Virus genome (UHGV): UHGV-0141727
DNA length: 64,000 bases
From: a virus
Direction: 5' to 3' (one strand)
Position numbers and translations under genes: made by a program. Below the pieces are notes generated by a model. It did no database searches. It was not told where the DNA came from and saw nothing but the letters and a program-made list of their open reading frames with translations. Position 1 is the first letter of the stretch, and every line of letters begins with the position of its first letter. This document shows, in pieces, positions 1-64,000 of this stretch.

Positions 1-90
1 TAAATCCGCCTTAAGCGGTACGGTTTGAGAGGGTATGGAGTGTGTTAATTTCGCAGAATCACACCCCGAAGGTTCTTACTCAAAAGGGGA

Positions 91-588
91 TCATGGTTGA
101 ACCTGGATAACATCACCGTTCTTAACGGTAATGATTTTGTTCAGAAGAACGATTTGCGGGAAATTTCCAGCATACCAACTGAACGAACCAATCACTTCAT
201 ACTGGCCTGGTGGTACGTTTTCGAACTCAAATTTGCCTTGAGCATCTGTCAGGACAGTTCTGTCATATTCCGCAACCCTGCCGTCGATTATTTCTAAGGT
301 CTGAGTGTCGTAATCAATTTTGGGGGTATTTTTGATATATGAAGTATACGGACGCAGTATGATATTGGAGCCAGCACCAATCTTCACATCCCCTCCGCGA
401 GTTACTCCAAATAATTCCCCCTTAACCTTACCTGTGCCTTTTTTCGGCAATGCCTGATATTCCTCGACAGGGAATGCCGGGCGTTTAACAAACTGTTTTA
501 CTTGCTGAGGCTTGTTGTATGTCTGAACCGGAGCACATCCTGATAATGCAAATGCACAAACAATAGTCGCTAATATTGCTTTTTTCAT
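91..588 (-). CDS. lipoprotein with CarboxypepD_reg-like region
   Basis: ORF 91..624; internal ATG at 588 gives MKKAILATIVCAFALSGC signal peptide with lipobox; GQYEV-type motif. Confidence 0.5.
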   Translation of the reverse strand: MKKAILATIVCAFALSGCAPVQTYNKPQQVKQFVKRPAFPVEEYQALPKKGTGKVKGELFGVTRGGDVKIGAGSNIILRPYTSYIKNTPKIDYDTQTLEIIDGRVAEYDRTVLTDAQGKFEFENVPPGQYEVIGSFSWYAGNFPQIVLLNKIITVKNGDVIQVQP

Positions 589-781
589 AACTTTCTCTTT
601 TCTCAAATAAATAACGCAAACCAATAATAACTAGTGTTATCATTAACTTAGCGCAACTTAACTTTTCTGTTAGATAATACATTGAATAAAGTTAAAGATG
701 AATGCCGTTTAATAATGTTTGGTGTAATAGAAATCACATTCTCAACATAGTTATTGCTCTTTTTTCATTCGGAGCATGATT

Positions 782-1267
782 ATGATCAATAATGAACCTC
801 GCTGGCTTATTGAAGCCCGTAAAAATATTGGAGTCACCGAAATAAAAGGAGCGAAACACAATCCTGAGATCGTCCAGTTCTGGCGGGATATTAAGCGCAG
901 CGGAATTAAAGACGACGAAACGCCGTGGTGCGCTGCATTTGTTGGTGCAATGCTGGAACGTGTAGGTATCCGCTCAACAAGATTTGAGTCGGCAAAATCC
1001 TATCTGGATTGGGGCGAGAAATTAGATACACCGGCATACGGATGTATCGTTGTATTTACTCGCGCAGGCGGTGGGCATGTAGGCTTTGTTGTCGGACGCC
1101 GCGCCAATGGCGATCTGCTTGTCTTGGGTGGGAACCAGGGGGATGCTGTTAATATTCGCGCATTCCCAACATCAAGAGTGTCTGGCTATCGCTGGCCTGC
1201 TGGCGAACCACGCAATACAGCTCTGTTACCAGTCGGAGACGCAGCAACCTCAACTAATGAGGCATAA
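782..1267 (+). CDS. cell-wall peptidase (CHAP/NlpC-P60-like Cys-His), probable endolysin-type hydrolase
   Basis: ORF 776..1267; WCAAFVG Cys and GGHVGFVV His motifs; GGAG 7 nt upstream of ATG 782. Confidence 0.5.
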   Translation: MINNEPRWLIEARKNIGVTEIKGAKHNPEIVQFWRDIKRSGIKDDETPWCAAFVGAMLERVGIRSTRFESAKSYLDWGEKLDTPAYGCIVVFTRAGGGHVGFVVGRRANGDLLVLGGNQGDAVNIRAFPTSRVSGYRWPAGEPRNTALLPVGDAATSTNEA

Positions 1268-1290
1268 AAAAGCCCCGGCCAGGCCGGGGC
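1265..1290 (-). terminator. GC-rich hairpin GCCCCGG/CCGGGGC followed by T-run on minus strand, downstream of ant fragment
   Basis: inverted repeat 1272-1290 with A6 on plus (T6 on minus). Confidence 0.5.
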
Positions 1291-1298
1291 ATCACACT

Positions 1299-2203
1299 TC
1301 AAGTTACGATCCAATCATTACCGACTGCATCCGCCGTCGATAAATCGACTTCCCGGATCTGGTATCCATTAATACAAAACCATCCAGTGGTAGAGCTATT
1401 ATCAGGCCAGACCCATACACCAACACTCCATGCTTTACGGCGGCACACTTCAGCCTGTCCTTCCCTGATTTTTTTTACCGCCTGCATGATGTCCATCACT
1501 CGCCTCCCCAACCGATTACCTGGAATTGCCCCATCCTTGGGTGATACCAGCGTTTTCCTCGGTGTTCAGCCTCCGACATCATCAGGGTAAAGGCATTCAT
1601 GAAGGGAGATAAGGCCACAATAGTACGACGCGACAATACCCCCTCTGGCGTCAAAAACTCATGCGTATCTGTGGGGATCCGGTAAGCGTTGACCAAGTTA
1701 CGGCATTTGGCTTCAGTCAGGCCGCATTTCGCCGCTAACTGGCGATAGCCAATGTAACCTTCCGGCATGTTGCCCTTCTTGATCTGCTCGACGGTTTCAG
1801 CGACCTGGCTAACCTTTGACTCAACAGCATGAAGCCGCTTTTGCTGCTGAACTGCATTCGCAGCCATTGCAGCGATCATCTCTATTTCGGTCAACGGCTG
1901 GCGTACTTGTTCTTCCAGTTCGCGCCAGCGGTCCACCAGCCGGGCGGTAAATTCGGGAGAAAGCTGCGCAACGACAATGATACTGTCACGCTTGCCTTGC
2001 TCGCCTTCGAAGAAATAGGCTTTTGTGTATTTATTAGGGCTAAGTGATTGATTATTCTCAACTGTAGCCAATGGCGTATGTTGGATAACTCCTTTAGCAA
2101 CAAGTCTTTCGATGCTGCGTTTAACATCAGAGTGACGACTTCCCACCAGTTCCGCGATCTCAATGCTGGTCATTGATGGCTTTTCGAGAATGCAGATATC
2201 CAT
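1299..2203 (-). pseudogene. Rha-family antirepressor (Ant-like) disrupted by frameshift
   Basis: ORFs 1496..2203 (Rha N-terminal domain, IAELVGSRH motif) and 1299..1511 overlap in different frames; together they align to the intact paralog 51286..52227. Confidence 0.55.
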
Positions 2204-2842: not shown

Positions 2843-3802
2843 TCATCCCCGAAAGCCCTCCGGAATTGACCAGTCTTCCCGGTCAAATTCAGACCGATAG
2901 CCACGCTGTTTCATCTGGTCAAATGCTTCATTGATGGTTGCACATCCCTGGGAACCAGAATAATCCATAGAGAAATCCAGGGCGCTGGATCGTTTGGGCT
3001 TATTCACCGTGGTAGCACTACGTATCCATGCAAATTTTTTTGCCAGTTTTTCAGCGGTACGATACAGAGCCTGCCGTTTTGCGTACCCCTCGTCTGAACG
3101 ACGCTTTGCAGCTCTCGCTTTTGCCGCCGCCAAACAGTGGTTGGTATGTTCTTCCCTGATTACTGTTTTTTTATCCAGCAAGCCATTATCCGCTTGAGAA
3201 CTATCTGCTGGTGAAGCCTTTGGCTGAACCGCGCATGATCTTTCTCTTCTTTTGGCTATAGAGTGACTCTTATTTTCTATTGGCTGTTCATTTTGAACAT
3301 GGGGGGACTTGTTCAATTTGAACAGGGGGTGCCCAGTTTCAAAAAAATAACGAACCTTTGAAATCAACTGCTTAACCAGTTTTGTGGCGTTGGCAAATTT
3401 GATGCCCTGCTTACTCCCTATCTCCATTGCTACATGAATGAAGTGGAGAAATTGTGTTGTAAACCGGTACACGTTACACACCTGAGCATTGTTATTCGCT
3501 ACCTGATGCTGCTTAACAAGCATTCCGCACTTCGTCGCTTCGGTAAATGCCCGGCGCACAGTAGAAATACTGCGTCCTGTAATCTCGGACATATCAGCAT
3601 ATGAGCGACGGATCATGTATTCATCGGTAGCTCCTGCCAGGTTGGCGAACTCGGCAATAATGGCGCTATGTGAAGGGGAAAGAAAACCGCTATGACGAGC
3701 AAAAAAACTCAACTGATGACCTTTGATTTTTTTGTGGTATTCAGTGTTGTTTTTATACTCAGAAGTGTTGAAAGTTACTGGAACTGAATTTAAAATACTC
3801 AT
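2843..3802 (-). CDS. winged-HTH DNA-binding protein (possible replication or regulatory protein)
   Basis: ORF; HTH-like segment SEITGRSISTVRRAFTEATKCGMLV; 9-bp inverted repeat GTATAAATC/GATTTATAC in its promoter region 3828-3856. Confidence 0.35.
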   Translation of the reverse strand: MSILNSVPVTFNTSEYKNNTEYHKKIKGHQLSFFARHSGFLSPSHSAIIAEFANLAGATDEYMIRRSYADMSEITGRSISTVRRAFTEATKCGMLVKQHQVANNNAQVCNVYRFTTQFLHFIHVAMEIGSKQGIKFANATKLVKQLISKVRYFFETGHPLFKLNKSPHVQNEQPIENKSHSIAKRRERSCAVQPKASPADSSQADNGLLDKKTVIREEHTNHCLAAAKARAAKRRSDEGYAKRQALYRTAEKLAKKFAWIRSATTVNKPKRSSALDFSMDYSGSQGCATINEAFDQMKQRGYRSEFDREDWSIPEGFRG

Positions 3803-3864
3803 CAGATAGTTCCGTGAAAAATCTATCTACCGTATAAATCTATGCCAGTGGATTTATACACCCA

Positions 3865-3896
3865 AAAGCCGCTACTCAGCGGCTTTTGCTTTTTTG
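3865..3896 (+). terminator. intrinsic terminator-like hairpin AAAGCCGCT/AGCGGCTTT with T-tract on plus strand
   Basis: stem-loop followed by TTGCTTTTTTGG; no annotated plus-strand gene upstream. Confidence 0.35.
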
Positions 3897-4000
3897 GCAG
3901 TCGCTACCGGAGCAGTGACCGCGATCCTACTCGATCACGTGCCGTCGGATCAACAGTGTATAAAAACACACTGTGTTAGAAAATTAAGCTAGCTTTTAGC

Positions 4001-4999
4001 TCACATCCTCTTAGACACAAAGATCAGCGGAGTCACCGTCTTGTTCTCTTTCACCGGTATTTCTTGTTGTTTATTGGCTGATATTGGCAGACCATAAGTG
4101 GCATTAGCCCCTAGGGATTCAAGCATCGCTGCGACAATGCGTGCATCATCCTCTGACTGCATACGGCAGAGCGCCCGGCGCTGTTCTGCGCTGATAAAAA
4201 CAGGCATTTCCTGGATAGCATCACGCAAAATACGGCGGCATTTCTTCGCGTTCTCCCCCTGGCTTTCCATCATCGCGGCCTGGTCGCGTAGTTTGTCGCG
4301 AAGCTGCATATTTTCCACTTCAAGATGTATCAGTTCCGATTCCAGAGCTTCACGCTGTGCTGATTCAATCATTGCTTGTTGACTTTGCATTTGTGCAAAG
4401 TGATGAACAATATCTGTAGCCTGATTGTCAGTGAAACCTTGATCCATCAGCGACGTGTGCATAACAGCTTCACGCTCTTCAACGGACTCCATCATCGGTA
4501 TCTGTTTATCGAGGCTGATATAGTTCGGCACGGTAACGTAATCAAATCCATGAAAGGAGTTTACTATTGACACGAAAGAATCAGGTCCAATAGTCGCCCA
4601 TGACCAACCGCCAGCATTTGAGTTGATCAATCCTTGAACAATATGCCCTGTATATGAATCAAGAATTTCTTGGGTGTGCGTAATGACACCATTATCGTCA
4701 ATAGAAATATCAACTGTTCTGTTAGATGGCACATTTTCCAGAAGAAGAGGCTTACCATCCATCATAACAACGCAAACCTCTGGCAAATCTAGTGATTTAG
4801 TTTTGTTGTAATACATCGAGCGGCGACCATGACCGTAATATCCAAATAGCTCACCAAGAGCCATGCGCTCTTTAACTAGCGGTGATGTTATGGTTTTTCG
4901 CACAGCCTCAATAATGTATTTTCGGTTGTTCTGCGGTGTATGTTTGCGGATTTTCTCTACCAGGGAGAAGCGATCCGTAACGGTATTCAGTGATTGCAT
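4001..4999 (-). CDS. head morphogenesis protein (prohead protease/scaffold-like by size and position)
   Basis: ORF 332 aa immediately downstream of portal-size gene; coiled-coil C-terminal half. Confidence 0.3.
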   Translation of the reverse strand: MQSLNTVTDRFSLVEKIRKHTPQNNRKYIIEAVRKTITSPLVKERMALGELFGYYGHGRRSMYYNKTKSLDLPEVCVVMMDGKPLLLENVPSNRTVDISIDDNGVITHTQEILDSYTGHIVQGLINSNAGGWSWATIGPDSFVSIVNSFHGFDYVTVPNYISLDKQIPMMESVEEREAVMHTSLMDQGFTDNQATDIVHHFAQMQSQQAMIESAQREALESELIHLEVENMQLRDKLRDQAAMMESQGENAKKCRRILRDAIQEMPVFISAEQRRALCRMQSEDDARIVAAMLESLGANATYGLPISANKQQEIPVKENKTVTPLIFVSKRM

Positions 5000-5012: not shown

Positions 5013-6698
5013 TTAATTATTGCTCATCACAAATTTTGCAAAGTTGATTAATTGTTCTTGCGTCCAGTTTTCCGGATCGTCACCGGACGACAACGGCGCG
5101 GATTCGTACATACCATGCTCGTTGTTTTGCTCTGATTCATTCGCCTTAAACTCTTTGATCATTACGTTGAGAGTGTCATCGTCGATACGAAGCTGTTCGG
5201 TGAACAGATAGCGCATAAACGCGTCGCTACCCGCCAGTTTCGGGTTGTTCTGGATCTGGTCCATTATTTGCGAGATGACAGCTACGAAGTTGGCGCGCGC
5301 ATCCAGCTCTCGGTTTTCCTCTTCCTGGATAGCTGTGTTCATTGAGTTGAATTGCACGTCATAAGGACGGTTTTTTTCGGTGTAAACCTTCCCGTATTTA
5401 TAAGCGAGGTGAATGTCATGAAGCCGATAAATAGTCCGCTGGGCGGCCTGTCTGATCCAGTTCGCGCGTAATGCGGCCTGGATAGCTGTTTGCTGCCAAC
5501 CGCCTTCTCCAAGCCCCCCACTCATCTGATCAGCCCAGCCAAGCATTGTTGCGTCAATGCCGAGGCTTGCCGCGAGCTGTCGGAGATGAAACATAACGTC
5601 TTCGATACCACTGATATCTGCGGGTATAGATTGCGTATCAATGGTGATCCCGTTCTTCCCATCCCCCATGACAGGTATCAGATGGTTAAGTACAGATGGG
5701 AGAGCATTAGAATTAATTGACCGTTGCGCTACGAGGTCGCTATGGCGCTTCAGTGCCTGGCTGACCCCGCGCGTATAATTCGCCGCGTTTACCGGATCTA
5801 TCGTGTTCGTTGTGAGTGCAATCAGGCGATCAATTTTTGCAGCGTTGTTTCGCGTTGCTTTCAGCGCAGCAAGCGCGGCACATAAATTCAGGTAGGGTTC
5901 ATAACTGTATTCAAGAAACGACGTACCGTAGTTCTGTGTCTCCATTAACGGCTTGTCCTGCTGTTCACTAAGCAAGGAATAGCCTGTAGTGCCGTAAGTT
6001 ACTGGCATTACTTTATGCTGAGGCGTCCAGTACGGGTTTTTCATGGAAACCAGATTCCACGGCTCGGTTATAACTCTGCGCAAAGTATGCGTGTCCAGAA
6101 TGTAATCACCGCTGAATCCGACAAGTTGGCTACCGCGATAAAACTCCTGAACGAAATGAGGGAGCGTGTAATAGCTCGACTCAATTCCAGTTATCCCCTT
6201 CCCTTGCTCTGCATATGGACGGATATACGACACACCGAAAATAGCCATGATCATGGCCCACGATGGAAGGCCATCATTAATCATTGAGCTTAAATCAGCG
6301 GTCAATTCCTCACATCGACTTACAGCCTCCTTATCCGCCCCATTTTTCGGAGCGAGAATAAATGCGAGGCCTGTTTTTTTTGATGGAGCCAGAGAATGCG
6401 CAATGTGAATGTTTAATGCTGTGGAGATAGTCGGACTTTTCGCCATCGTCTCCAGTATGTTGTATTTTTGCAGGCGGTCACTCGGTAATTCTGCCGATAT
6501 AGATACTGTATCCGCCGCGCTTGTCATTCCATCGCTATTGCTCCCCAGGATGCCTGGACGCAAGGCGGACAGGCCAGAACGAGCAACGACGCTATGCCCG
6601 CTCGCAAATACGACCGGATCGGCAGGCGTAACATCACCACCGCTGAAGGCTTTCTTCAATGCCGACAGAAAGCCCTTGTTTTTGTCTTTCGTTGCCAT
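5013..6698 (-). CDS. portal-like virion protein
   Basis: ORF 561 aa, portal-sized, first gene of head operon; assignment by size and synteny only. Confidence 0.35.
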   Translation of the reverse strand: MATKDKNKGFLSALKKAFSGGDVTPADPVVFASGHSVVARSGLSALRPGILGSNSDGMTSAADTVSISAELPSDRLQKYNILETMAKSPTISTALNIHIAHSLAPSKKTGLAFILAPKNGADKEAVSRCEELTADLSSMINDGLPSWAMIMAIFGVSYIRPYAEQGKGITGIESSYYTLPHFVQEFYRGSQLVGFSGDYILDTHTLRRVITEPWNLVSMKNPYWTPQHKVMPVTYGTTGYSLLSEQQDKPLMETQNYGTSFLEYSYEPYLNLCAALAALKATRNNAAKIDRLIALTTNTIDPVNAANYTRGVSQALKRHSDLVAQRSINSNALPSVLNHLIPVMGDGKNGITIDTQSIPADISGIEDVMFHLRQLAASLGIDATMLGWADQMSGGLGEGGWQQTAIQAALRANWIRQAAQRTIYRLHDIHLAYKYGKVYTEKNRPYDVQFNSMNTAIQEEENRELDARANFVAVISQIMDQIQNNPKLAGSDAFMRYLFTEQLRIDDDTLNVMIKEFKANESEQNNEHGMYESAPLSSGDDPENWTQEQLINFAKFVMSNN

Positions 6699-6930
6699 GA
6701 TTCACCGCAAAAGGTTTCCGATTTCGTGGCAGCTTATCCAGTGTGTGATTTCATCAGTAATTTTTCGTTGTTTTCACTATATGCTGATGTTTTTTCATAT
6801 GCGGAAATGCTTTTCCAAAAACGCAACCGCCAAACAAAGAAGTTATGTTTATAAACATTTTTGTTGTGTTTTATATCTTTTGTGTTATTATTCTTGTCGC
6901 CCATGATGGATAAATTGCATAAGGAAACTT

Positions 6931-7113
6931 GTGAAGTATTCAGAGTTCAAACGCTGGTTAATCCAGCAAGGGGCAGAGTTCAGGAAAGCGCCAGGTGGCG
7001 GCAGTCATCAGAAAGTGAACCTGAACGGAAAGCGGTCGGTTTTCCCGGACCACGGTTCAAAGGAAATGCCTGAACCGCTACGCAAGAAAATAATGAAGGA
7101 CCTGGGGCTTTAA
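6931..7113 (+). CDS. hicA: HicA toxin (mRNA interferase)
   Basis: 60-aa ORF MKYSEFKRWL...GGGSHQK; GTG start with AAGGA RBS; followed by hicB. Confidence 0.8.
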   Translation: MKYSEFKRWLIQQGAEFRKAPGGGSHQKVNLNGKRSVFPDHGSKEMPEPLRKKIMKDLGL

Positions 7114-7143: not shown

Positions 7144-7575
7144 ATGTTTAACTATCCGGTAAAACTGGAGCGCGACGACAATACCGGCGCGTATGTCGTA
7201 TCATGCCGCGACCTACCATTGTTTAATTCCGTGGGTGACTCAGTTGAAGAAGCGTTGCTTGAGGCTGGTTATGGATTGGTCGCAGCGGTTGCGATTGAGA
7301 TTGAAGAACGCCGACCTGTTCCCACTGGTAGCGAGCCAAAAGAAGGTGAGTACGTTGTCTCTTTGCCAGTGCTACCAGCAATGAAGGCTGCACTCCACAA
7401 CGCGATGATAGAAACCGGCACACGCAAAGCAGAGTTGGCGCGCAAACTCGGAAAAAATGGAACACAGATTGATCGGCTTCTCGACGTCGAACATTCATCG
7501 AAAGTTGAAACTGTCGAGTTGGCACTGCATCAACTGAATAAAAATATCGCCGTATCTGTCACACCAATGCGGTGA
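7144..7575 (+). CDS. hicB: HicB antitoxin with C-terminal DNA-binding region
   Basis: 143-aa ORF immediately downstream of hicA. Confidence 0.8.
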   Translation: MFNYPVKLERDDNTGAYVVSCRDLPLFNSVGDSVEEALLEAGYGLVAAVAIEIEERRPVPTGSEPKEGEYVVSLPVLPAMKAALHNAMIETGTRKAELARKLGKNGTQIDRLLDVEHSSKVETVELALHQLNKNIAVSVTPMR

Positions 7576-7687: not shown

Positions 7688-9073
7688 TCAGGTTTCCAGC
7701 CCAAAATCGCTTTGTTCTGTTTTGGCTTCGAACATCGTGAAGTTAAGCCCTTTCCCCTCTCCATGTTCCAGTTCAATCTCATTAGAAACAGCGGTCAAAA
7801 TACTACGTAGATCGACATCTCCACCGCCGAACATATCGCCCAACGCCTGCTGTTTATGAATCAGTTCGTCGTTGATTTTTTGTGCCATTTTTTTGAATGC
7901 AGCCCCCATGCGCTTCGCGCTTCGATTATTTGCCACGATGAATAGCGCCAACGCCTCAGCTTCCGGCGTGCTATCACCGAAGAGTCCGCGCTGGGCTATC
8001 ACCTCTTCCACTGCCTGACCGTTGTCTTTGGCTTCACGAACAAGGTTAATCGCGTCCTGGAGTGCTGCTATAGCCTGTTTATCCAGACCGTTCACCTGCT
8101 CTATACCATCAACCAGACCAGTTACAGCATCATGATGTGCATCGCCAGAAATCGACTGCATTTGCGCAAAGTCACTGGCTGCTGTATTAAGCGCGGTCAG
8201 GATATTGCGCATTTCCGGATCCGGTTCTTCCGCCACAAGCCGAACAAGTCGCTCATCCTTATAGGCTTTGGCAAAAATCGCATTCTGAATGCGATCGATA
8301 AGCTGTTTCGTTGGACGTCCATCGGCTGTAAGCAAACCTGCCGTCGCGGTATCGCCTATTTCGTGCAAAAACGCACGAATAAACGCATCATTGGACCGCG
8401 CCAGTAGATTGCCATCATCTGAAGGATTAAATAGCGCCATGACGCTCTCAGTGAGAAATTGCGCATCCGCATACGCTTTCTCACTTGCAGCCATCTCTTG
8501 CAGATCGCTGATGTTTGAGTCGCGTGCAAATTGAGCACGATCAACGTCAGTGAGGCGCTCGCGAACCAGTACAGGCATCACCATTGCCCTGACGTCTTCG
8601 GGATTAAGGCCAAACTCTTTAGCGTGATCGATAAGATATTGTCGGTAATCTTCAGCCTGCCCTTGTTCATAAGCACGCCAGATTCCCATGCTTCGACCAT
8701 TACCAGACTCAACGACATTATCCGGACCAACAATCGGGGAACCATGACTACTCATACCCGAATCAGTGAGTTGTGCCGGGCGTAAATTGGCGGCGATACG
8801 GTTAACCTGGAGCTTACTTGACAGTCGGGTGCGATCGCGAGGCTGGAGTTCCTCCGGAAATGACGGATTTATACTTCCGTCCAGGTTGTTAGAAATGATG
8901 AGCTTTTTGGCATCAATAACCTTGAACGCTGTTTTAACTTCGTCGCCTTTGCTGGTGACGACATAGCTGCTACGCCCCAACTTCGTCTCTTGCTTTTCAA
9001 GAGATGACACCACAGCGATAACCCCCTCAATGTTCGCTGCGGCTAGAAGTGCTGATGTTACGTTTTGAGTCAC
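7688..9073 (-). CDS. hypothetical virion-associated protein (last gene of Dar-like cluster)
   Basis: ORF 461 aa; position after DarA/DdrA-like genes. Confidence 0.3.
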   Translation of the reverse strand: MTQNVTSALLAAANIEGVIAVVSSLEKQETKLGRSSYVVTSKGDEVKTAFKVIDAKKLIISNNLDGSINPSFPEELQPRDRTRLSSKLQVNRIAANLRPAQLTDSGMSSHGSPIVGPDNVVESGNGRSMGIWRAYEQGQAEDYRQYLIDHAKEFGLNPEDVRAMVMPVLVRERLTDVDRAQFARDSNISDLQEMAASEKAYADAQFLTESVMALFNPSDDGNLLARSNDAFIRAFLHEIGDTATAGLLTADGRPTKQLIDRIQNAIFAKAYKDERLVRLVAEEPDPEMRNILTALNTAASDFAQMQSISGDAHHDAVTGLVDGIEQVNGLDKQAIAALQDAINLVREAKDNGQAVEEVIAQRGLFGDSTPEAEALALFIVANNRSAKRMGAAFKKMAQKINDELIHKQQALGDMFGGGDVDLRSILTAVSNEIELEHGEGKGLNFTMFEAKTEQSDFGLET

Positions 9074-53911: not shown

Positions 53912-53946
53912 GAAGATACTTTTTTCGGACGCTATATCAGGAGGTC

Positions 53947-55520: not shown

Positions 55521-55750
55521 GCATCCGAACTGAACATGGATTTGGTCCGTCAACGGTCGAAGTCGAATGGCTTGATGATTGCCCTAAGTGCCAGCACGGC
55601 AAAGCCAAGGTAACAGGATGGTCGGTAACCAAAGATTCTTTGTGGGCGGGTGATGAGGCCGTCTGTTCCAAATGCGGTCACAAAGGCGAAATCGATGCTG
55701 ATGGAGAGAATGCCTGGGTGGAATGGGACGAAATCGAGGAGGCACAATGA
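55517..55750 (+). CDS. small zinc-ribbon protein
   Basis: ORF 55484..55750; ATG 55517 with AAGGAG RBS; CPKCQHG...CSKCGH. Confidence 0.4.
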   Translation: MSIRTEHGFGPSTVEVEWLDDCPKCQHGKAKVTGWSVTKDSLWAGDEAVCSKCGHKGEIDADGENAWVEWDEIEEAQ

Positions 55751-56379
55751 GCAATATCGACACACTGGCGCTGCGTGAGGCGGCAGAACGTGCAATTCCG
55801 GCAATGGAACGCCTGTTAATGTTGCCAGTTGATGATGATCTGATAAGTGAACAGGAACTTAAAGATTACGGTGTGGATATTGATGCGCTCAACGCCTTCA
55901 AATTTCTGGCCGGACCAGAAACCGTGCTGGCACTACTGGATGAACGGGAAAGAAACCAGCAATACATCAAACGCCGTGACCAGGAGAACGAGGATATTGC
56001 GCTAACGGTAGGGAAGCTGCGTGTTGAGCTTGAGGAAGCAAAATCAAAACTCAACGAGCAACGCGAGTATTACGAAGGTGTTATCTCGGATGGGAGTAAG
56101 CGTATTGCAGAACTGGAAGCACGGGAAATAAAACCAGCCAAAGGTGAAGTTCTTGTCGTTGTTTCTGGTTTTACTGGTTGCGGAAAAAGCGCCATTGCCG
56201 GGGAAATAGAAATCGCGATGAAGGCTATTGGTGTACCGGTTCAGTGGACTAATGGCGATGCGGAAAAGCGCATGACAGGAGCTGACTGGCTGACAGCAAT
56301 TGAGATGTACAAACCAACTGTGCGCATCGTGGAAGTTAATGTGCCACGCGCCCCTGGCATTCGCATCAAAGGAGAGTGA
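55747..56379 (+). CDS. Ea22-like protein with Walker A-like C-terminal region
   Basis: N-terminal [10 protein letters not shown]...KDYGVDID module shared with 60980..61732; GFTGCGKS motif. Confidence 0.5.
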
Positions 56380-56380
56380 G

Positions 56381-56704
56381 ATGACCACATCGCATTCTGC
56401 AATCACCCAGGAAAAAGTATTTCGCTTGCTCGAACGTCTGGAGGCGCTCGCCACGGAGGAGGATATATCCCCGGAGATGCTGGTCGAGTGCAGCCGTGTG
56501 ATATTGCGTCGCAAGAACGACATCGCGCGGCTGACATCCGGCGCACCATCCGTATCAGCCAGTCCAACGCTTTATTGCAGCTTCTGCAACAAATCCCAGC
56601 ACACCGTTAAAAAGTTAATTGCCGGTGACAACGTTTTCATCTGCAACGAGTGCGTGAAAGATTGCAACAACATTATCCAGGAAGAGCAAAGGGAATCAGC
56701 ATGA
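56381..56704 (+). CDS. protein with ClpX-type C4 zinc-finger domain
   Basis: ORF 56300..56704; ATG 56381 with GGAG RBS; [36 protein letters not shown] matches the ClpX N-terminal zinc-binding domain as recalled from memory. Confidence 0.55.
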
Positions 56705-57411
56705 AATTTTCCAAATTTTCTGAGTTGGTGAATCGTATTTTGTCCAACAACCACAGCCATCGTCGCGATATGGATGTAACAATCGTTATTCATTCGCCTG
56801 GCAGCATTGGTTCAACACCTTCAGTTGAGGTTCAGTCAATTCACGCTGGTTTTGATTGGGATTCCGGGAAAGTGCTGATTTTCCCAGCACAGCCACTGAC
56901 CGCGCTAACACCAGAACAGATTACTGATATCACGGATAGTGTGCGCAAAGGTCAGTCTTGGCACGCATATCAGGAATACAAGAAGCATAAAGAGCAGTTG
57001 GAAAAATTGTCGATTGAACTTGATGCTGCAAGACGGCGCATTACAGAACTGGAGAGCGAACGCGCGGTGCTGGCGGCGGAGAATGCGGATCTGAAGTCTG
57101 TGCACCCTCAACCATTCGGAGCTGAGATGATGAAGGCTCTTGATGCGTATGAGAAGCATCAGGATGAAGTGCCAGAGACTGGAATGCTCAATGCATTTTT
57201 CATCTTGCGCGACAGTATCCGTGTTGACACCCCAGCCACCGATGCTTTCCTGGCTGAAGTACGTGCGCAGGGCGTGGATATGGCTCGTAACGCGATGATT
57301 GATTTTGTCGATGGTGAAGTTGGTCCAAACAAGAATGTTCCGGGGCTGATTAGAGGCGCAGAGATATGCGTAAGTATTGCTGAACAGCTTCGCAAAGGAG
57401 GCAGCCAGTGA
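56701..57411 (+). CDS. Ea22-like protein
   Basis: ORF 56650..57411; ATG 56701; [12 protein letters not shown] motif. Confidence 0.5.
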
Positions 57412-57683
57412 ATATCGACACGACAATAACGATCGATACGCTCCTAAATTCCGGTCTGGCACTTCTCGGTTGGCTTTACATCATGTCCCGTACATGGCGA
57501 TGGCTGGGTTCCATTTTCCTGAAACAGTGGAAAAAACGGCGCAAACATGAACTACGCCAGAAGGCATTAGAAGCGTTCTATGACGCATTTGAACTTGGCA
57601 GCATTGAACCAGGCACAACAGCGAGGATAGCGACAAAAGGCGACCTGATGATAGTGATGTTCAGACAGGAGAAAACAAAATGA
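57408..57683 (+). CDS. small membrane protein
   Basis: GTG start with AAAGGAGG RBS; one TM segment. Confidence 0.35.
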   Translation: MNIDTTITIDTLLNSGLALLGWLYIMSRTWRWLGSIFLKQWKKRRKHELRQKALEAFYDAFELGSIEPGTTARIATKGDLMIVMFRQEKTK

Positions 57684-57904
57684 CAGAACAGACGATGACA
57701 AATCGCGAACTTGTTGATGCCGCGATTGAACTTGCTGGCGATTTTTATTCCATGATGGGTTACGAACATCGTCCTGGTTTTAAGTATTGGGAGTCACCGC
57801 ATCCGCAAGAACAACAGGTGTTTGAAATGGCCTGCCGTGCTTTTGAGGTTATTCGCGGTTCTGATGTGATGGAGGCCGTTGCCGACTTGGAGGATGAAGA
57901 GTGA
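57680..57904 (+). CDS. hypothetical protein
   Basis: ORF 74 aa. Confidence 0.3.
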   Translation: MTEQTMTNRELVDAAIELAGDFYSMMGYEHRPGFKYWESPHPQEQQVFEMACRAFEVIRGSDVMEAVADLEDEE

Positions 57905-58212
57905 GCATCATTGTAGAAATGCCGGTAGAACGTGATGAATATGGCTGCTGGACACATCCGGAGTATGAAAAGTTTTGCGCAGGTCGTGAATATATATCCA
58001 CTGAGGAATTTGACGCCTGGATGAAGGAAAATAATCTTCAGTGGACTATTCGCAGTATGGATGAAGATGATTTTAATCTGGACGCAGATGGCCCCGATAT
58101 TGCCGCCTGGGAACCAGAGCGACCAGAGGGCGAAGGCTGGTTTGTTGGCTCTATTCATGACACTGAAGATGGTCCGGTTTGTATCTGGCTGCGGGAGAAG
58201 GTTGCCGCATGA
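57901..58212 (+). CDS. hypothetical acidic protein
   Basis: ORF 103 aa. Confidence 0.3.
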
Positions 58213-58895
58213 CCCAGGTGCTGCATGAAGTGAATTTATATAGCCGTATTGATGGTTCAGGCTACAGAAACATATGGGTTGTTGGTGATTTGCACGGTTG
58301 CTACACCCTACTTATGAATGAACTCCATCGTGTGGATTTTGACCCTACACAGGATTTACTGATATCGGTTGGCGACCTTATCGATCGCGGCACCGAAAAT
58401 GTTGAATGCCTGGAGCTATTGCAGATGCCCTGGTTTCGGTCGGTTATGGGAAACCACGAGCGATTAATGATCGATGCGTTAAGTCCCGCAGGCAACGTGA
58501 ATAACTGGCTAATGAATGGTGGTCAATGGTTCTTCATGCTGGACGCTGATCGGGAAATATTAGCCAGGGCGCTGGTGGAGCTGGTAAGACGTTTGCCCTA
58601 TATCATTGAGCTGAACACCGGGCATGAAACTATCGTTATAGCCCATGCCGACTATCCTGATAACGAATACCAGTTTGGTAAACCTGTTAGCGATCTCAAT
58701 GTTACCTAGCGGCGTGAGCGATTTTATGACGCGGTTGATGGTGTTGGTGGAATAATCACTGGTGCAGATAGCTTTATTTTCGGGCATACGCCAGTAAGCA
58801 GCCCGAAATCTTTCTGGAACCAGCACTACATAGACACTGGTGCGGTTTTTTGCGGAAATCTGACGCTAAAGCAGGTGAAGGTAGGGCAGTCGTAA
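58209..58895 (+). pseudogene. lambda-type Ser/Thr protein phosphatase interrupted by in-frame amber codon at 58707-58709
   Basis: GDLHG, GDLIDRG, GNHE motifs before the TAG; GHTP and IDTGAVF motifs continue in frame after it. Confidence 0.6.
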
Positions 58896-58925
58896 TCCTG
58901 AACACATCGTTTATGCACTCAAAAT

Positions 58926-58960
58926 GATGTTAGAATATTGATTTTAATTTTCTAACAGAT
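58926..58960. promoter_or_regulatory. operator-like inverted repeat TGTTAGAA-N14-TTCTAACA upstream of 59000 gene
   Basis: member of recurring motif family. Confidence 0.4.
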
Positions 58961-58999
58961 TATTTTACCGCTCGGAACAAAACAGAGTCGGTATACATT

Positions 59000-59995
59000 A
59001 TGAGTGCAATAATCACACCTCATTTCGTAAACGGAGCTGGTGTGGCTGTCTTTCCGGTAGACAAGCCCACCAGTAACTACATTGGCGCAGGTCGCCGTTT
59101 CATTATCTCTCCACTTCCGCGTGAACAGGCTGAAAACACGCCAGATGGCGTAGTGGATCTGAATTATTCGCTGGTTGCCAACCAGTCTCTGAAACCGTTT
59201 TTTCAAAGCGAGCGCGTATTTAACGCGTTGGGCGGTGAAGATTCGCTTGTTCATTGGGTAAGTTCCAATATCCACGATTGCCAGGCGCACGATAAGCGCG
59301 ATTGCAGCCACCAGCTAACCACTCATTTCTATAACGGCTCTGCCGTTCGCCTGTGCTGGAAGCATGATGCGGAATACATGATGAAGGGGTACAGCAAGCT
59401 GGACGACCAGTTATCCCTGAATCGTGCCAACTGGGTTATGAACTGGGCTGCGAGCGAGTTAAAACTACCGCCAGAACGCGATCTGAGCATGGTTGAACTC
59501 ACTTTTTGGGCCATTCGCCGAAATCTTAAAGACGAGCTGCCAGATGAAGCCGGTCGCATTGCATTTTGTCAGCCAAAACAGGAAATCCCTACCGGCACAC
59601 TGAAAGAATCGGATATCACCTGGGAGCACAGCACCCGTGAGCTGGTGGACATAACCGCAGAGCAGATCGTCAACCTGTCTGTAGATGAGGATTCCGGCCT
59701 GCTGTATATGCGCCGACCAAAAGCGGTTCTCGGTAAAAGCCCGACTTATCTCCGGTTTGTGATTTCTCGTCCGTGCATCGGATGCGGTGGCAAAGTTAAT
59801 CACCCGTTCATGTACCGCGCCCGCTCGTTAAACGAACACGATCGCTGGGCCGTTCCTCTTTGCGATGAATGCGCCAGAAGCGCAGAAAACGATGTCCGTG
59901 CATGGGAAAAAGCACATGGCATACGCCTTTACGTAGCCGCTAACCAGCTTTTCGACTTCGCCATCGAGCGCGGAGTGATCACGTTCAATAACTGA
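59000..59995 (+). CDS. hypothetical protein with C-terminal Ref-like Cys/His cluster
   Basis: 331-aa ORF; PCIGCGG...H...VPLCDEC resembles the C-terminus of 53255..53830. Confidence 0.35.
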   Translation: MSAIITPHFVNGAGVAVFPVDKPTSNYIGAGRRFIISPLPREQAENTPDGVVDLNYSLVANQSLKPFFQSERVFNALGGEDSLVHWVSSNIHDCQAHDKRDCSHQLTTHFYNGSAVRLCWKHDAEYMMKGYSKLDDQLSLNRANWVMNWAASELKLPPERDLSMVELTFWAIRRNLKDELPDEAGRIAFCQPKQEIPTGTLKESDITWEHSTRELVDITAEQIVNLSVDEDSGLLYMRRPKAVLGKSPTYLRFVISRPCIGCGGKVNHPFMYRARSLNEHDRWAVPLCDECARSAENDVRAWEKAHGIRLYVAANQLFDFAIERGVITFNN

Positions 59996-60011
59996 TGGAG
60001 TGGATCAAAAA

Positions 60012-60734
60012 ATGAAAGAACGCGGGATGATTTTTAACGATGAAATGGTCCGGGCCATCCTCGAAGGAAGAAAAACGCAGACTCGCCGACCTGTAAAAAA
60101 TGTCAGGGCCGATAACTGCCTAGTTATCCGTAAACCGACAAAGAAACGCAATGGTGTCTATACCCACGTTATGGATGCACCTGAACATGGTTTATGCCCG
60201 TTCGGTAACGTTGGTGATCGCATATGGGTCCGTGAAGCGTGGGCGATATTAGGCAATGAGGATGGTTGCAGTGTGGACTGGAACGACAACCTTTGTCGTG
60301 GCGATGAGAAGAACGCAGCAAGGATTTATCGGGCCAGTTGCGAGCAAAAGCCTGGTGATTACGGCTTATGGTCGATACCCGATGATGCCGACTGGAAACC
60401 TCACACTGTGAATGAAAAGTTTGATGGCGGGTGGTGTCCATCAATTCACATGCCGCGATGGGCATCACGCATTCTGTTGGAGATTACCAACGTGCGCGTT
60501 GAGCGGTTGAACGATATCAGCGAATGCGATGCAGGGGCTGAGGGCGTTCCGCCTGCTGGAAGTTTGCTTCCTGATTACCCGGAAACATTCCTTACTCCCA
60601 AGGGGGATTTCGCAATGGCCAAGGTTGCGTTCCAGCGTCTGTGGGAATCCATCTATGGTGAAGAAAGCTGGAACACTAATCCCTGGGTATGGGTAATCGA
60701 GTTTAAGCGTATTCAGGGGGCAACCTGTGAGTGA
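60012..60734 (+). CDS. hypothetical prophage early-region protein
   Basis: ORF 60000..60734; ATG 60012; MIFNDEMVRAILEGRKTQTRR N-terminus. Confidence 0.35.
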   Translation: MKERGMIFNDEMVRAILEGRKTQTRRPVKNVRADNCLVIRKPTKKRNGVYTHVMDAPEHGLCPFGNVGDRIWVREAWAILGNEDGCSVDWNDNLCRGDEKNAARIYRASCEQKPGDYGLWSIPDDADWKPHTVNEKFDGGWCPSIHMPRWASRILLEITNVRVERLNDISECDAGAEGVPPAGSLLPDYPETFLTPKGDFAMAKVAFQRLWESIYGEESWNTNPWVWVIEFKRIQGATCE

Positions 60735-60993
60735 GTCAAAATGCCAAATTAATGGCAACAAGATAGAACCGTGCGCGGCGTTGGCACAATCCCTGGAGCA
60801 TGACGCTGAATACACGACGCGAAAAGGTCTGCTGAAATACAAAATCTATAACCATGCATTAATTCATTCACAAGACCTGATCATGCTGCGGTCAGGCGAG
60901 TTTTCTAAATCGCCTATTCGAGTTTCATTTTGCCCATTCTGTGGTGAAAGTCTGAAAACGTGGGAAGCGGAGGCAGCCAGTGAGCAAAATTAA
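60727..60993 (+). CDS. small Cys-containing protein
   Basis: ORF 88 aa; CPFCGE motif. Confidence 0.25.
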   Translation: MSESKCQINGNKIEPCAALAQSLEHDAEYTTRKGLLKYKIYNHALIHSQDLIMLRSGEFSKSPIRVSFCPFCGESLKTWEAEAASEQN

Positions 60994-61732
60994 CTATCAA
61001 GAACTGCGTGAGGCAGCAGAACGTGCAATTCCAGAAATGGAGCTACTGACGCTTCCATTTGATGCTTGGTTAAGCAAACAGGAGCTTAAAGACTACGGTG
61101 TGGATATTGATGTCATCAACACCTTCAGGCTTCTGGCTGGACCGGAAACCATGCTGGAACTGCTGGATGAAATTAAGCGCCAGGAAGACACAAATATTGA
61201 TGCCACGTGCCGAATTTCAGAGCTTGAGACTATTCTAGCGACGCTGGTGGCAGAGAACGCCGGGCTGAGACACGTAATGACCACCTCCATTGAGCATGAG
61301 AATGTGGAGATTGAGCAAACGGCAGGTTGCCCACGTTTTAAGCTGAAAGGCAAAGACAGACTGATTGCAGATCTTAGAAAGCAACGTGCCGAATGGATAC
61401 GGAAAGCATTGCGTTACTCTGAAGAACGCGCAGCATTGGCTAAACGAATCGAAGAGATGGAGCAGGCCAACACAAGACAGGACGCCAATATAAACCACCA
61501 GCAGGAGGGCGTGACCCAATCAGTCACCCGATACATATATCACTACAACGCAGTGAATGGTTCTGACTCTATGTCTGGAATTGCGCGGTTAAGTTTCATG
61601 ATCAAATCACAATCTGACCTTGAAGAACTTAAAAGCGCGCTTAGGAATATTGGTGGTTTCCGTGCGAAAGCAATTACATCTCTTTCATATCTTGGGCGTG
61701 AGGAAGAAGGGCAAAACGATGAAAAACCGTAA
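60980..61732 (+). CDS. Ea22-like protein
   Basis: GTG start with GGAGG RBS; N-terminal module shared with 55747..56379. Confidence 0.5.
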   Translation: MSKINYQELREAAERAIPEMELLTLPFDAWLSKQELKDYGVDIDVINTFRLLAGPETMLELLDEIKRQEDTNIDATCRISELETILATLVAENAGLRHVMTTSIEHENVEIEQTAGCPRFKLKGKDRLIADLRKQRAEWIRKALRYSEERAALAKRIEEMEQANTRQDANINHQQEGVTQSVTRYIYHYNAVNGSDSMSGIARLSFMIKSQSDLEELKSALRNIGGFRAKAITSLSYLGREEEGQNDEKP

Positions 61733-61895
61733 AGCAAAATTACTTCTTTTATCGCGTTCGACGGGGTACGAGAAGCTACCAATCAGCAATCACAAACGGG
61801 CGGTGATCGGCATGTTTGGTAGGGTGGTATTCGCATTTAACTATAAACCCACCGCGTCGCGGAACAGACGAGAGAAGGGGTACGCAGTGCGATGA
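61719..61895 (+). CDS. small basic protein (MKNRKAK family, copy 1)
   Basis: internal ATG of ORF 61620..61895; paralog of next ORF. Confidence 0.25.
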   Translation: MKNRKAKLLLLSRSTGYEKLPISNHKRAVIGMFGRVVFAFNYKPTASRNRREKGYAVR

Positions 61896-62083
61896 AAAAC
61901 CGTAAGGCAAAGATGCTGATAGCAAAGCCCGGGCAGCGTATCCGTATCTCAAATCGGCTTGTTATTTACTATAGATATCTGGGTTTTAGGGGGTGTTCCT
62001 CTATTCGTTTTTACGGTGTCTGGCGGAGCAGAAGCGCGGCGCAAAACCGCTGGAAAAACCACTTGCGCACTAAAGGAGAGTGA
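61892..62083 (+). CDS. small basic protein (MKNRKAK family, copy 2)
   Basis: ORF 63 aa; overlapping ATGA junction. Confidence 0.25.
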   Translation: MKNRKAKMLIAKPGQRIRISNRLVIYYRYLGFRGCSSIRFYGVWRSRSAAQNRWKNHLRTKGE

Positions 62084-62303
62084 GGTGCCTACACTATTCA
62101 GGAAAAACTATCCGCGAAAGAGTAGAGCAATAGAATTGCTGTTTATCATTCTGTTTTTCGTGTTGCTGATACCAATAGCCTCAATATTAGTGACTGTTCT
62201 AATGGGGAGAGTATTTGAACCGTTAGTTGAACTGTATATCGATATAGTGTGGACCCCATTCAGGAAGCTACACAATAAAATTAACCCACATAAGGAAACA
62301 GAT

Positions 62304-62540
62304 ATGGCAACTTTGACAAAAGAAGATCGTTTTACCAAAAAACAAATCGCCGAGGCAAAAATCCTCGATAACAACGGAACCTACTTCATCAACGGTTCCA
62401 TTCTTCCTGTTTATATCAATGAAGATGGAGACACTTACCTTATTGAAGAGTACGAAAAAGGCGAGCCGAGCGAACACCTCATTAAAGATTTGTTCGCGGA
62501 TGGCGTTATTGTTGCTGTTAATCCGATTGGCTACAACTAA
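62304..62540 (+). CDS. small hypothetical protein
   Basis: C-terminal part of ORF 61959..62540; ATG 62304 with AAGGAAA RBS; in-frame GTG at 62085 would add a TM segment. Confidence 0.3.
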   Translation: MATLTKEDRFTKKQIAEAKILDNNGTYFINGSILPVYINEDGDTYLIEEYEKGEPSEHLIKDLFADGVIVAVNPIGYN

Positions 62541-62550
62541 AGCATAAATT

Positions 62551-63063
62551 ATGACCAGTATTACCAGAGAACAGGCCAAGAAAATTATTGAAGCTGCCGA
62601 TGAGGTTATTAGTGCGCTTGCCGGAACTAACGAGGATGTTCACCCTGGTAGCGATAACATGCTACGTCTGTGGGATGACCTGAATGACCGTTACGCGCCG
62701 CCGGAAGTTGTGCGTGAGCTGGCGCGTATCGTGCTGGCATCGCTGGAAGCGGAGCCTGTAGCGTGGCGATATCGCTACGTGAAAAAAAGCGTTACGGACT
62801 CTCAGGGGGAGCCGTGGGTTGGTGACTGGAAATATGTACCGACAAAAGAGGATTGCAACGACAGGCCGAGCTATGAGATTCAGGCCTTATTCACTGCCCC
62901 GCCAGTCCCGGTGACATCAGAAGGACTGGTTAAAGCCGTGCGTTTCTATGAACAAGTTAAGCGTGAAAATCCGCCAGTCGAAACCGGAGCATGGAAAGAC
63001 GCGGTTGACTGGGTGCTCAAAGAGGCCTGCCAGGTTGTAAACACTGGCATCAAAGGAGACTGA
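62551..63063 (+). CDS. hypothetical prophage early-region protein
   Basis: ORF 170 aa; ASLEAEPVAW motif shared with next-but-one ORF. Confidence 0.35.
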   Translation: MTSITREQAKKIIEAADEVISALAGTNEDVHPGSDNMLRLWDDLNDRYAPPEVVRELARIVLASLEAEPVAWRYRYVKKSVTDSQGEPWVGDWKYVPTKEDCNDRPSYEIQALFTAPPVPVTSEGLVKAVRFYEQVKRENPPVETGAWKDAVDWVLKEACQVVNTGIKGD

Positions 63064-63064
63064 T

Positions 63065-63274
63065 ATGGCTATTGCCGCAAGTTACACCATGCATCTCTAT
63101 TGTGATTGCCTCCAGTGTACAGATGGCAAATATAAGTCGCCAGACTTCGGTGAGTATATCGGTACGTCATGGGCTGGCTGTGCAAAAGAGGCGCGCAAGG
63201 ATGGCTGGCGAATAAGCAAAGACAAAACACGTGCTTTTGCGCCCGGGCATAAAGTTTTGAGGATTAACAAATGA
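63065..63274 (+). CDS. small Cys-rich protein
   Basis: ORF 69 aa. Confidence 0.3.
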   Translation: MAIAASYTMHLYCDCLQCTDGKYKSPDFGEYIGTSWAGCAKEARKDGWRISKDKTRAFAPGHKVLRINK

Positions 63275-64000
63275 CCACTGTAACCGACAAAGAACTGATT
63301 AAAGAAATCAAAGAGCGCATAGGCAGCCTGGACGTGCGAGACAATATTGAGCGCCGGGCTTATGAAATAGCGTTAGCCTCGCTGGAAGCTGAACCGGTGG
63401 CATGGCAGGTCACAATCACAAAAGACGGTCAGGACTCAGCCTCTATTATTTACCGTGACTGTGCAGAGAAAGACACATGGGTTCGGATACATGAGACACT
63501 TGGTTCTGTCGTACATGTCACTCCGCTTTACATGGCACCGCCAGCGCCGGTAACACAGGCTGATGTCGCGCAAGCAATTGAAAATCTCAGGCAGAAGTTA
63601 GTGGAATGCAATCGCTATAACTACTGCGCAGATGCAGTTAAGGGCGTAGAGGATGCCTGCCACGCTACCATGCTTCAGGGTAGCCAACCTGTAAGCCAAA
63701 CTTACAACTTGCCAGAATTAATCGAAGGGATGGAAGTTTCCATTGATGTAAGCACTTGTGATGCTGATTTAGGTAATCGCTATTTCGGCACCGTCACCGA
63801 GGCGTTAGAACTTGATACAGCCAAGAATGGTTACATCCTCCTGGTTCAGGACGCAGAGCCAAACTTCGATGTAAATGGCAACTCTCCGGGAACTCCGGAT
63901 AGTTGGATAAGCTGTAGTGAGCGAATGCCAGATGATGGTCAGCACGTAATTATTTTATGTGATGGCGCATTCGTTCTTTATGCGCAATATCGAGACGGAG
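63271..64000 (+). CDS. DUF551-like protein (3' partial, runs off window)
   Basis: ATG 63271; open to end of window; SWISCSERMPDDGQHVII motif. Confidence 0.4.
   Translation, partial: MTTVTDKELIKEIKERIGSLDVRDNIERRAYEIALASLEAEPVAWQVTITKDGQDSASIIYRDCAEKDTWVRIHETLGSVVHVTPLYMAPPAPVTQADVAQAIENLRQKLVECNRYNYCADAVKGVEDACHATMLQGSQPVSQTYNLPELIEGMEVSIDVSTCDADLGNRYFGTVTEALELDTAKNGYILLVQDAEPNFDVNGNSPGTPDSWISCSERMPDDGQHVIILCDGAFVLYAQYRDG

Follow-up and report, generated by a model that had tools for sequence, protein, structure and literature searches.

A D6-like segment of a P1-family phage-plasmid with a P1-type replication cassette

Introduction

Does the 64,000-nucleotide stretch of virus genome UHGV-0141727, which contains approximately 90 genes at a GC content near 0.47, represent phage P1 carrying a collection of foreign modules, or a different branch of the same family? 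An earlier note, made from the letters and the open reading frames (ORFs) of this stretch (hereafter, the window), had described it as one P1-like but mosaic phage-plasmid segment. We conclude, with a probability of roughly 0.92, that the window is a single uninterrupted segment comprising approximately 70% of a circular D6-like (P1-g2) plasmid-prophage of approximately 90 kb within the P1 phage-plasmid family. The window is an unremarkable representative of the phage D6 branch, which has been described before, and the element falls in an Escherichia subclade without glnS from which no phage has been isolated. This group is well catalogued and common in Escherichia and Salmonella, and the window is a routine example, one more variant of a subclade that is rich in public data; its value lies in documenting a D6-related subclade that lacks glnS and an isolated phage, and in a swap of the replication cassette that can be resolved to the base.

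Relationship to D6 and P1

We first consider whole-sequence comparisons, which the earlier note had proposed. When window 1-25000 was queried against phage records by megablast, Escherichia phage D6 (NC_050154 / MF356679; Gilcrease and Casjens 2018) topped the list, with 82.6% identity over 57% of the query, and matches to P1 and P7 were confined to icd/c4 and the tail-fibre gene S. For the central 24 kb, D6 was the sole matching phage record. Direct blastn placed window 793-62571 onto D6 19,282-83,605 as one collinear chain, with agreement in order ORF by ORF, and aligned 48.6 of the 64 kb (76%) to D6 DNA at approximately 81% nucleotide identity. The corresponding alignment to P1 (NC_005856, P1-g1) covered 5.9 kb (9%). 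Among the 80 window ORFs of at least 60 aa, homologues were found for 64 in D6, with a mean protein identity of 83.5%, and for 36 in P1, with a mean of 49.5%. The gene-repertoire (wGRR-like) score was 0.67 to D6 and 0.22 to P1. Relatedness has been reported as approximately 0.75 within a subfamily and 0.23 between P1-g1 (P1) and P1-g2 (D6) (Pfeifer et al.), and the closeness of our scores to these values indicates that the window is a P1-g2 element. The label P1-like is thus upheld at the level of the family and of synteny with the group, but the closest reference is D6.

The earlier note had also listed ParMR, a small ParA, HicAB, a HigB-like module, and the lambdoid Ea22 and DUF551 genes as departures from P1. 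All of these are present, with Ea22 in two copies and the HigB-like module as a Gp49 toxin. However, the D6 annotation places ParM(StbA)/ParR, a small ParA with its partner ORF, two icd-ant modules, hrdC with two methylases, ref, and a DUF4406/Ea22/ppp/pdcB early operon at the same positions, which indicates that ParMR, the small ParA, the second Icd-Ant module, and the Ea22 of the early operon are lineage backbone. The window and D6 share gene order across D6 19.3-83.6 kb, the ParM/ParR and small ParA genes, two C4-Icd-Ant modules, RdgC with methylases, Ref, an Ea22/DUF4406/DUF968 early operon, and, at homologous sites, an operator motif and a late-promoter-like box. A toxin-antitoxin (TA) pair adjoining tail genes is likewise found in D6, and for DUF551 the only confirmation came from the window's close relatives. 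The mosaicism is real, but it lies in the replicon, the fibre switch, the TA genes, and the cargo, and most of the listed departures from P1 are D6 backbone. Specifically, the mosaic sites are a replicon swap, a deletion of cin and the invertible segment, a TA exchange, the capture of yjaZ/sroH, the absence of glnS, and a replacement of simB. Relative to D6, the window further differs in the centre of its Sit homologue and in its distal fibre, both of which are divergent.

P1 and the window resemble each other in lifestyle and in the logic of their modules, and the functions for morphogenesis, Dar, Lyd, RepL, Ref, Mat, HrdC(RdgC)-Dmt, and C4-Icd-Ant are homologous; the RepA/oriR/incA architecture is also shared, with RepA 41% identical. 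They differ in that the proteins are 30-60% identical, the order of the immI/repL, prt/pro, and ref/mat blocks is rearranged, the operator and late-promoter sequences are not those of P1, and the window has a second Ant module and lacks the res/mod, ban, and sim genes. No window ORF gave a tblastn match at the P1 parA/parB locus, and ParM/ParR is present in place of ParAB/parS. These comparisons bear on whether the window could instead be a plasmid-prophage of P1 proper (Punavirus, P1-g1) that acquired ParMR, ParA, TA pairs, and lambdoid genes piecemeal. Such an origin would account for structural blocks in P1 order at 30-60% protein identity, for the P1-type RepA and origin layout, and for short stretches in S, icd/c4, ppp, and pmgT that are 82-87% identical to P1. 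It is nonetheless very hard to reconcile with the 9% of the window that aligns to P1 DNA, with a repertoire score to P1 at the published between-subfamily level, with the presence of the allegedly foreign modules at the same positions in D6, and with the lack of P1 operator matches (up to three mismatches) or enrichment of the P1 late-promoter box, and we consider it highly improbable.

Replication cassette

The RepA, iterons, DnaA box, and GATC cluster that the earlier note reported were recovered, with a second DnaA box, within a complete 1.4-kb P1-type oriR-repA-incA cassette at 25068-26486 (plus strand). The cassette and its right flank comprise the following features.

25082-25090 and 25316-25324: two perfect DnaA boxes
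25096-25151: GATC cluster, five sites in 56 bp
25193-25292: five origin iterons with 21-bp spacing, upstream of repA
25373-26257, plus: repA, 294 aa
26260-26483: approximately seven control iterons in both orientations, downstream of repA
26487-26795: remains of a displaced D6-type replicon (16-nt repA end and orphan iterons)

RepA shares 41% identity with P1 RepA (E 2e-70) and 85% with its counterpart on the P1-like plasmid pSA186_4, in which repA adjoins parAB as in P1. It has no detectable similarity to D6 RepA, and a search for solved structures of RepA returned none. At exactly this locus, the related plasmid pEC361_3 carries a D6-type origin and a 251-aa RepA. The cassette junctions are sharp, and the right junction retains the final 16 nt of a D6-type repA together with its stop codon, followed by orphan D6-type iterons of the form GGTGTAAGATTTGCCCTCA (four strong and two weak, 26504-26795) without a cognate initiator. 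Because D6 and close relatives have an unrelated initiator at this locus, RepA is foreign to the lineage. We conclude that a P1-type cassette replaced a D6-type replicon, with the leftover iterons as its footprint in an otherwise conserved phage backbone, and that RepA, which the earlier note had taken for ordinary P1 heritage, is the clearest foreign piece of the window. This replicon swap with orphan iterons is the sole feature that merits a short follow-up.

The exact 294-aa RepA occurs in 1186 index blocks, which indicates that this variant is common. In PLSDB, only NZ_CP085065.1 and CP042620.1 share the replicon cassette of the window, at 97-99%. Elements that encode an identical 1089-aa S protein (L016-L020) carry three different initiators at the pmgB-tub site (approximately 830-1713 of each locus): the D6-type 251-aa protein, the window-type 294-aa protein, and a third protein, also of 294 aa, which belongs to the P1-RepA family and has just 43% identity to the window RepA. 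Two of these backbones, when compared directly with the window, were at least 99% identical over shared sequence. One speculative reading, to which we assign a low probability, is that the pmgB-tub site would be a hot spot for replicon exchange at which the orphan iterons might titrate or handcuff the D6-type RepA of relatives in an incA-like manner and so destabilise competitors. If true, replicon switching would both evade incompatibility and exclude rivals. Two further observations concern this site. In L017, an icd-like gene rather than tub follows the third initiator type. In addition, the D6-type RepA is 98% identical between D6 (45841-46596) and pEC361_3 (15110-15865), whose backbones share only approximately 80% DNA identity, which suggests a recent move of the D6-type replicon between subclades.

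Window ends and plasmid status

Circular, non-mobilizable plasmids of E. coli and E. marmotae of 89-94 kb match the window at 96-98%. The plasmids pEC361_3 (NZ_AP027414.1), pRHBSTW-00605_3 (NZ_CP056699.1), NZ_CP069647.1, and NZ_CP085065.1 are 96-99% identical over most of the window, and neither PLSDB nor the E. coli complete-genome set contained a 100% match. The left end of the window corresponds to a position 22 bp from the start of darB in the E. marmotae plasmid, the right end cuts a DUF551 gene, and relatives continue in D6 order beyond both, which places both ends within the element. One metagenomic scaffold of 92,420 bp agrees with window 52551-64000 at 100.00% identity and runs on past the window end through hot, humD, phd/doc, a Tad2-like gene, dut, and a cre-like recombinase; over window 3.8-27.0 kb, two NCBI contigs reach 99.98% and 99.92% identity. 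The parts that the window lacks are present in the circular pEC361_3 (90,284 bp): a c1-like repressor, a cre-like gene, pacAB, an lpa-like gene, a tRNA cluster, pmgS, and darB. No tRNA was found within the window; the tRNA cluster of relatives lies outside this segment.

We also considered whether the window might derive from a prophage integrated in the chromosome. A 381,655-bp contig (L027; GCA_026231215.1 JAEGNL010000005.1) contains the exact RepA of the window with flanking phage genes, and this copy could be integrated, cointegrated, or an assembly artefact. However, neither the window nor either of its ends contains an integrase, an att site, or a host flank, both ends continue in D6 order in relatives, and the window holds a complete plasmid replicon and two partition systems. 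Furthermore, when window 1-24000 was compared with the E. coli complete-genome set, plasmids accounted for 1413 of 1444 matches. We therefore regard chromosomal integration as a very remote prospect, and the earlier proposal of a single contiguous P1-family phage-plasmid segment is borne out.

The closest plasmids, including pEC361_3, belong to the same glnS-less subclade and also carry yjaZ. The gene glnS has been reported in all D6-like genomes, as a hallmark of the group rather than a formal requirement for membership. It is kept in D6-like plasmids of approximately 80% identity and is missing from the 96-98% subclade that includes pEC361_3; in the window, there is no glnS ORF and no room for one between 39514 and 39636. 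Most of the related plasmids differ from the window in carrying the D6-type 251-aa RepA. Both plasmids examined for the fibre switch, pEC361_3 and the E. marmotae plasmid, retain cin and the invertible segment, unlike the window. In pEC361_3, a HigA/RelE pair occupies the position of the Gp49/HTH pair, and in the E. marmotae plasmid (L009 16022-17191), an IS200/IS605-type TnpB lies directly upstream of hicA, whereas the window has no TnpB.

Immunity modules and operator motif

The window contains two Icd-Ant modules, and an Rfam C4 antisense RNA accompanies each; one also has an a1b1 target and the other an isrK-family RNA. These modules and the other genes found near operator-like sites are as follows.

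1496-2203, minus: module 1 Ant (Rha family)
2203-2427, minus: module 1 Icd
2475-2560, minus: module 1 C4 antisense RNA
2628-2680, minus: module 1 a1b1 target
2843-3987, minus: RepL lytic replication protein, 95% to D6 and 28% to P1, with its upstream operator-like site included
39636-40670, minus: D12-class adenine methylase (2e-53), with a middle ORF between it and RdgC
41210-42115, minus: RdgC (1e-100)
51286-52227, minus: module 2 Ant (Rha)
52227-52442, minus: module 2 Icd
52497-52584, minus: module 2 C4 RNA
52629-52707, minus: module 2 isrK-family RNA
53255-53872, minus: Ref RecA-dependent nuclease (6e-36)

The Icd-Ant, Ref-like, and RdgC-plus-methylase assignments of the earlier note thus agree with ours, and P1 itself carries uhr-hrdC(RdgC)-dmt. 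A search with the P1 C1 operator consensus ATTGCTCTAATAAATTT gave no match with up to three mismatches in the window or in D6, compared with 17 in P1, and this candidate was rejected. De novo k-mer counting instead identified a 16-bp motif, TTAATTTTCTAACACA, with nine window sites (up to three mismatches) where 0.87 were expected; none of 100 shuffles reached nine. The sites run from 2772 to 58944, in accord with the operator-like motif that the earlier note had seen at both ends.

2772-2787: operator-like site upstream of c4-icd-ant
3972-3987: operator-like site upstream of repL
34056-34071: operator-like site in the gp23 divergent region, just past the tail/head block
42128-42143 and 42146-42161: bivalent operator-like site upstream of rdgC-dam
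53243-53258: weaker operator-like site at the ref 3' end
53874-53889 and 53892-53907: bivalent operator-like site between ref and DUF4406
58944-58959: operator-like site upstream of pdcB

Five of these loci match the P1 positions of Oc4, OrepL, Odmt, Oref, and Omat, and D6 contains 17 sites of the TTAATTTTCTAACACA type, some of which precede c1, lpa, and cre. The window does not reach c1, which was observed in relatives alone. From these patterns, we infer that TTAATTTTCTAACACA is the C1 operator of the D6 lineage.

Late-promoter-like boxes

The P1 late-promoter pattern, a AAGTGACTT-type box with a -10 element, occurred at two sites where 1.4 were expected and was rejected. Inspection of upstream regions revealed a D6-lineage box: AAATCACAAACTG followed by a -10-like hexamer was found at 15 sites in the window, compared with 2.85 expected. 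Eight of the 15 lie in the correct orientation upstream of the genes listed below, and all eight are conserved in D6.

6739-6751: box upstream of prt
12899-12911: box upstream of lydA
17543-17555: box upstream of R
25055-25067: box upstream of pmgB
33984-33996: box upstream of gp23
36738-36750: box upstream of upfC
45439-45451: box upstream of gene 7
49753-49765: box upstream of mat

P1 has late promoters at the corresponding prt, lydA, R, gp23, and mat positions, which suggests that the AAATCACAAACTG sites are the D6-lineage counterpart of the Lpa-dependent late promoters of P1. The D6 lineage would then keep the regulatory layout of P1, with operators and late promoters at homologous sites, and use different recognition sequences, a relationship that aids annotation.

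Morphogenesis, lysis, and fibre genes

The minus-strand arrangement that the earlier note had likened to that of P1, namely LydA/LydB, Hdf/DarA/DdrA, fibre, baseplate, and a 1287-aa Sit homologue, was found in full.

91-624, minus: 177-aa carboxypeptidase-regulatory-like protein, adjoining the cell-wall hydrolase upstream
776-1267, plus: CHAP/TIGR02594-type cell-wall hydrolase, 96% protein identity to D6 orf16
4001-4999, minus: Pro (head processing)
5013-6698, minus: portal Prt
7688-12911, minus: antirestriction and lysis operon DdrB-DdrA-DarA-Hdf-LydB-LydA, including its late-promoter-like box
7688-9073, minus: DdrB
9165-9536, minus: DdrA
9530-11482, minus: DarA (Pfam DarA_N and DarA_C)
11479-12120, minus: Hdf
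12086-12532, minus: LydB (Pfam LydB, 1.5e-24)
12532-12858, minus: LydA
13000-13086, plus: cin 5' remnant, 87 bp
13323-13745, minus: U-like fibre assembly protein
13777-17046, minus: fibre gene S, 1089 aa
15832-15851: orphan cixR site inside S, identical to cixR of P1 and D6
17049-17495, minus: fibre gene R
17612-25136, minus: baseplate and injection block of gp16, BplA, PmgA, Sit homologue, and PmgB
17612-20265, minus: gp16, BplA, and PmgA
20271-24134, minus: Sit homologue, 1287 aa
26838-33996, minus: tail/head block of Tub, PmgC, BplB, PmgG, gp21, sheath gp22, an Ig-like protein, and gp23
32229-33926, minus: major capsid protein gp23
35101-35559, minus: Rz-like spanin
35630-36424, minus: UpfB
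36424-36708, minus: PAAR protein UpfC
42175-45451, minus: tail/baseplate genes 5, 6, 24, and 7, with the box at 45439-45451 included
46306-47833, minus: tail genes 25 and 26
48956-49609, minus: Mat
50908-51246, minus: PmgF

The absence of a Cin invertase, also stated in the earlier note, stands. The cin gene is gone except for its 87-bp remnant, and cixL and the alternative S'/U' genes are deleted as well; because only this remnant and one cixR site are left, a single fibre type is fixed. Towards its distal end, S is similar to the alternative S' of pEC361_3 read in the flipped orientation. We also observed that the cin remnant overlaps the region that serves as an inversion enhancer in P1.

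These losses raise the possibility that the element now exists only as a plasmid, as a defective descendant of a D6-like phage-plasmid that has ceased to make infectious particles. Defective D6-like variants are documented, such as pSO21_75 with its 15-kb deletion, and the deletion of cin and the alternative fibre genes, a ppp shorter than in relatives, and the location of approximately 28 kb of the element outside the window would fit such a derivative. However, the head, tail, baseplate, lysis, and Dar genes of the window are full length relative to D6: the portal, Pro, the major capsid protein, sheath, tube, baseplate, Sit, S/R/U, LydAB, and Dar products have a coverage of approximately 1.0 relative to D6. 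The two immunity modules are intact, as are repL and the late-promoter boxes, the loss of cin only fixes the fibre type, and near-identical contigs of 91-92 kb hold the remaining genome. We therefore judge a defective derivative to be improbable, at around one chance in ten.

Several points weigh against our assignment of the window to a D6-like plasmid-prophage. The c1, lpa, and terminase genes and cre/lox lie outside the window, so that immunity, packaging, and circularity rest on relatives. Virion formation by this element is predicted from its genes, and the operator and late-promoter roles are proposed from position, enrichment, and conservation. Some decay has occurred, as seen from the deleted cin and an apparently shortened ppp, and glnS, published as universal in D6-like genomes, is absent. 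Lastly, the Sit homologue showed no Pfam domain up to an E value of 0.1, so that a transglycosylase domain is not established here.

The Sit region had further peculiarities. Exact-sequence lookup of the 1287-aa product returned no match, probably because the start chosen by gene callers lies further in and yields 1265 aa; called lengths across relatives are 1064, 1255, and 1265 aa. The centre of the gene (20894-21395 and 22524-23994) fails to align to D6 DNA, and the AT skew of the region is strongly negative (-0.33).

Partition, toxin-antitoxin, and cargo genes

The plasmid-maintenance set consists of the iteron replicon, with its P1-type initiator, together with ParM/ParR and the small ParA. 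These genes and the TA and cargo genes lie at the following positions.

~36780-36870: parC-like 11-bp repeats (AGAGACACAAA-like) upstream of parM
36901-37917, plus: ParM
37928-38293, plus: ParR
38579-39220, plus: small ParA-like ATPase, 100% protein identity to D6
39213-39500, plus: 95-aa partner of the small ParA
6934-7113, plus: HicA
7144-7575, plus: HicB
48503-48850, minus: Gp49 (RelE/HigB-like) toxin
48204-48503, minus: HTH antitoxin
47926-48207, minus: second HTH protein
48872-48920: 14-bp unit ATAAACTACAGGTT, repeated and inverted, upstream of the Gp49-HTH operon
45541-46080, plus: YjaZ (stationary-phase adaptation protein) equivalog
46082-46267, minus: sroH-family RNA, full length, convergent with yjaZ, 113 bits

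The 11-bp repeats upstream of parM are consistent with a parC centromere, and they share one intergenic region with the upfC late-promoter-like box. An ORF at 6861-7073 was considered as HicA and rejected for want of a Pfam or NCBIfam match and for its implausible translation; the true HicA lies in another frame. In the window, HicAB sits between prt and ddrB, a site at which D6 has nothing. D6 has its own TA pair between genes 7 and 25, where the window has yjaZ/sroH, and the Gp49/HTH pair of the window, between gene 26 and mat, stands in for it. The ATAAACTACAGGTT repeats look like an autoregulatory operator of the Gp49/HTH pair. The yjaZ/sroH segment is approximately 81% identical to the chromosomal yjaZ locus of E. 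coli and occurs on only five plasmids in the E. coli complete-genome set; it is captured host-like cargo that occupies the site of the D6 TA pair.

Predicted life cycle

Homology to P1 and D6 allows the steps of a life cycle to be predicted. In the lysogen, the plasmid would replicate from the P1-type origin through its DnaA boxes, Dam-site cluster, iterons, RepA, and control iterons, and would be segregated by the actin-type ParM/ParR system and the small ParA system. Addiction would be provided by HicAB and the Gp49/HTH pair, with Phd/Doc just beyond the window in relatives. A C1-type repressor encoded outside the window would silence the lytic genes by acting on TTAATTTTCTAACACA at the c4-icd-ant, repL, rdgC-dam, ref, and pdcB promoters, and the two C4 antisense-RNA/Icd/Ant modules would gate antirepressor synthesis. 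After derepression, RepL would drive lytic replication, and promoters that carry AAATCACAAACTG and a -10 element would serve the late operons, which encode head, tail, fibre, lysis, and Dar antirestriction functions.

Early accessory operon and remaining genes

The right end of the window is occupied by an early accessory operon.

53947-64000, plus: early accessory operon
54075-54713, plus: DUF4406
55723-56379, plus: first Ea22
56300-56704, plus: ClpX-zinc-finger protein
57408-57683, plus: DUF4752
58179-58709, plus: shortened Ppp phosphoesterase
59000-59995, plus: PdcB/DUF968
60000-60734, plus: PmgT-like protein
60980-61732, plus: second Ea22
61959-62540, plus: DUF4014
62551-63063, plus: protein without assigned function
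from 63271, past the window end, plus: DUF551 gene

All unassigned ORFs can be placed in PHROG families that already exist but have no known function. The ORF for the Ppp metallophosphoesterase encodes 176 aa (166 aa in the gene call for contig L013, which is 100% identical), compared with 228 aa in relatives, and within 58179-58999 it is followed by approximately 290 bp that hold no plus-strand gene, which suggests that ppp may be truncated. At the site of D6 simB, the window encodes two proteins, of families phrog_12786 and phrog_13864 (49734-50911, plus strand).

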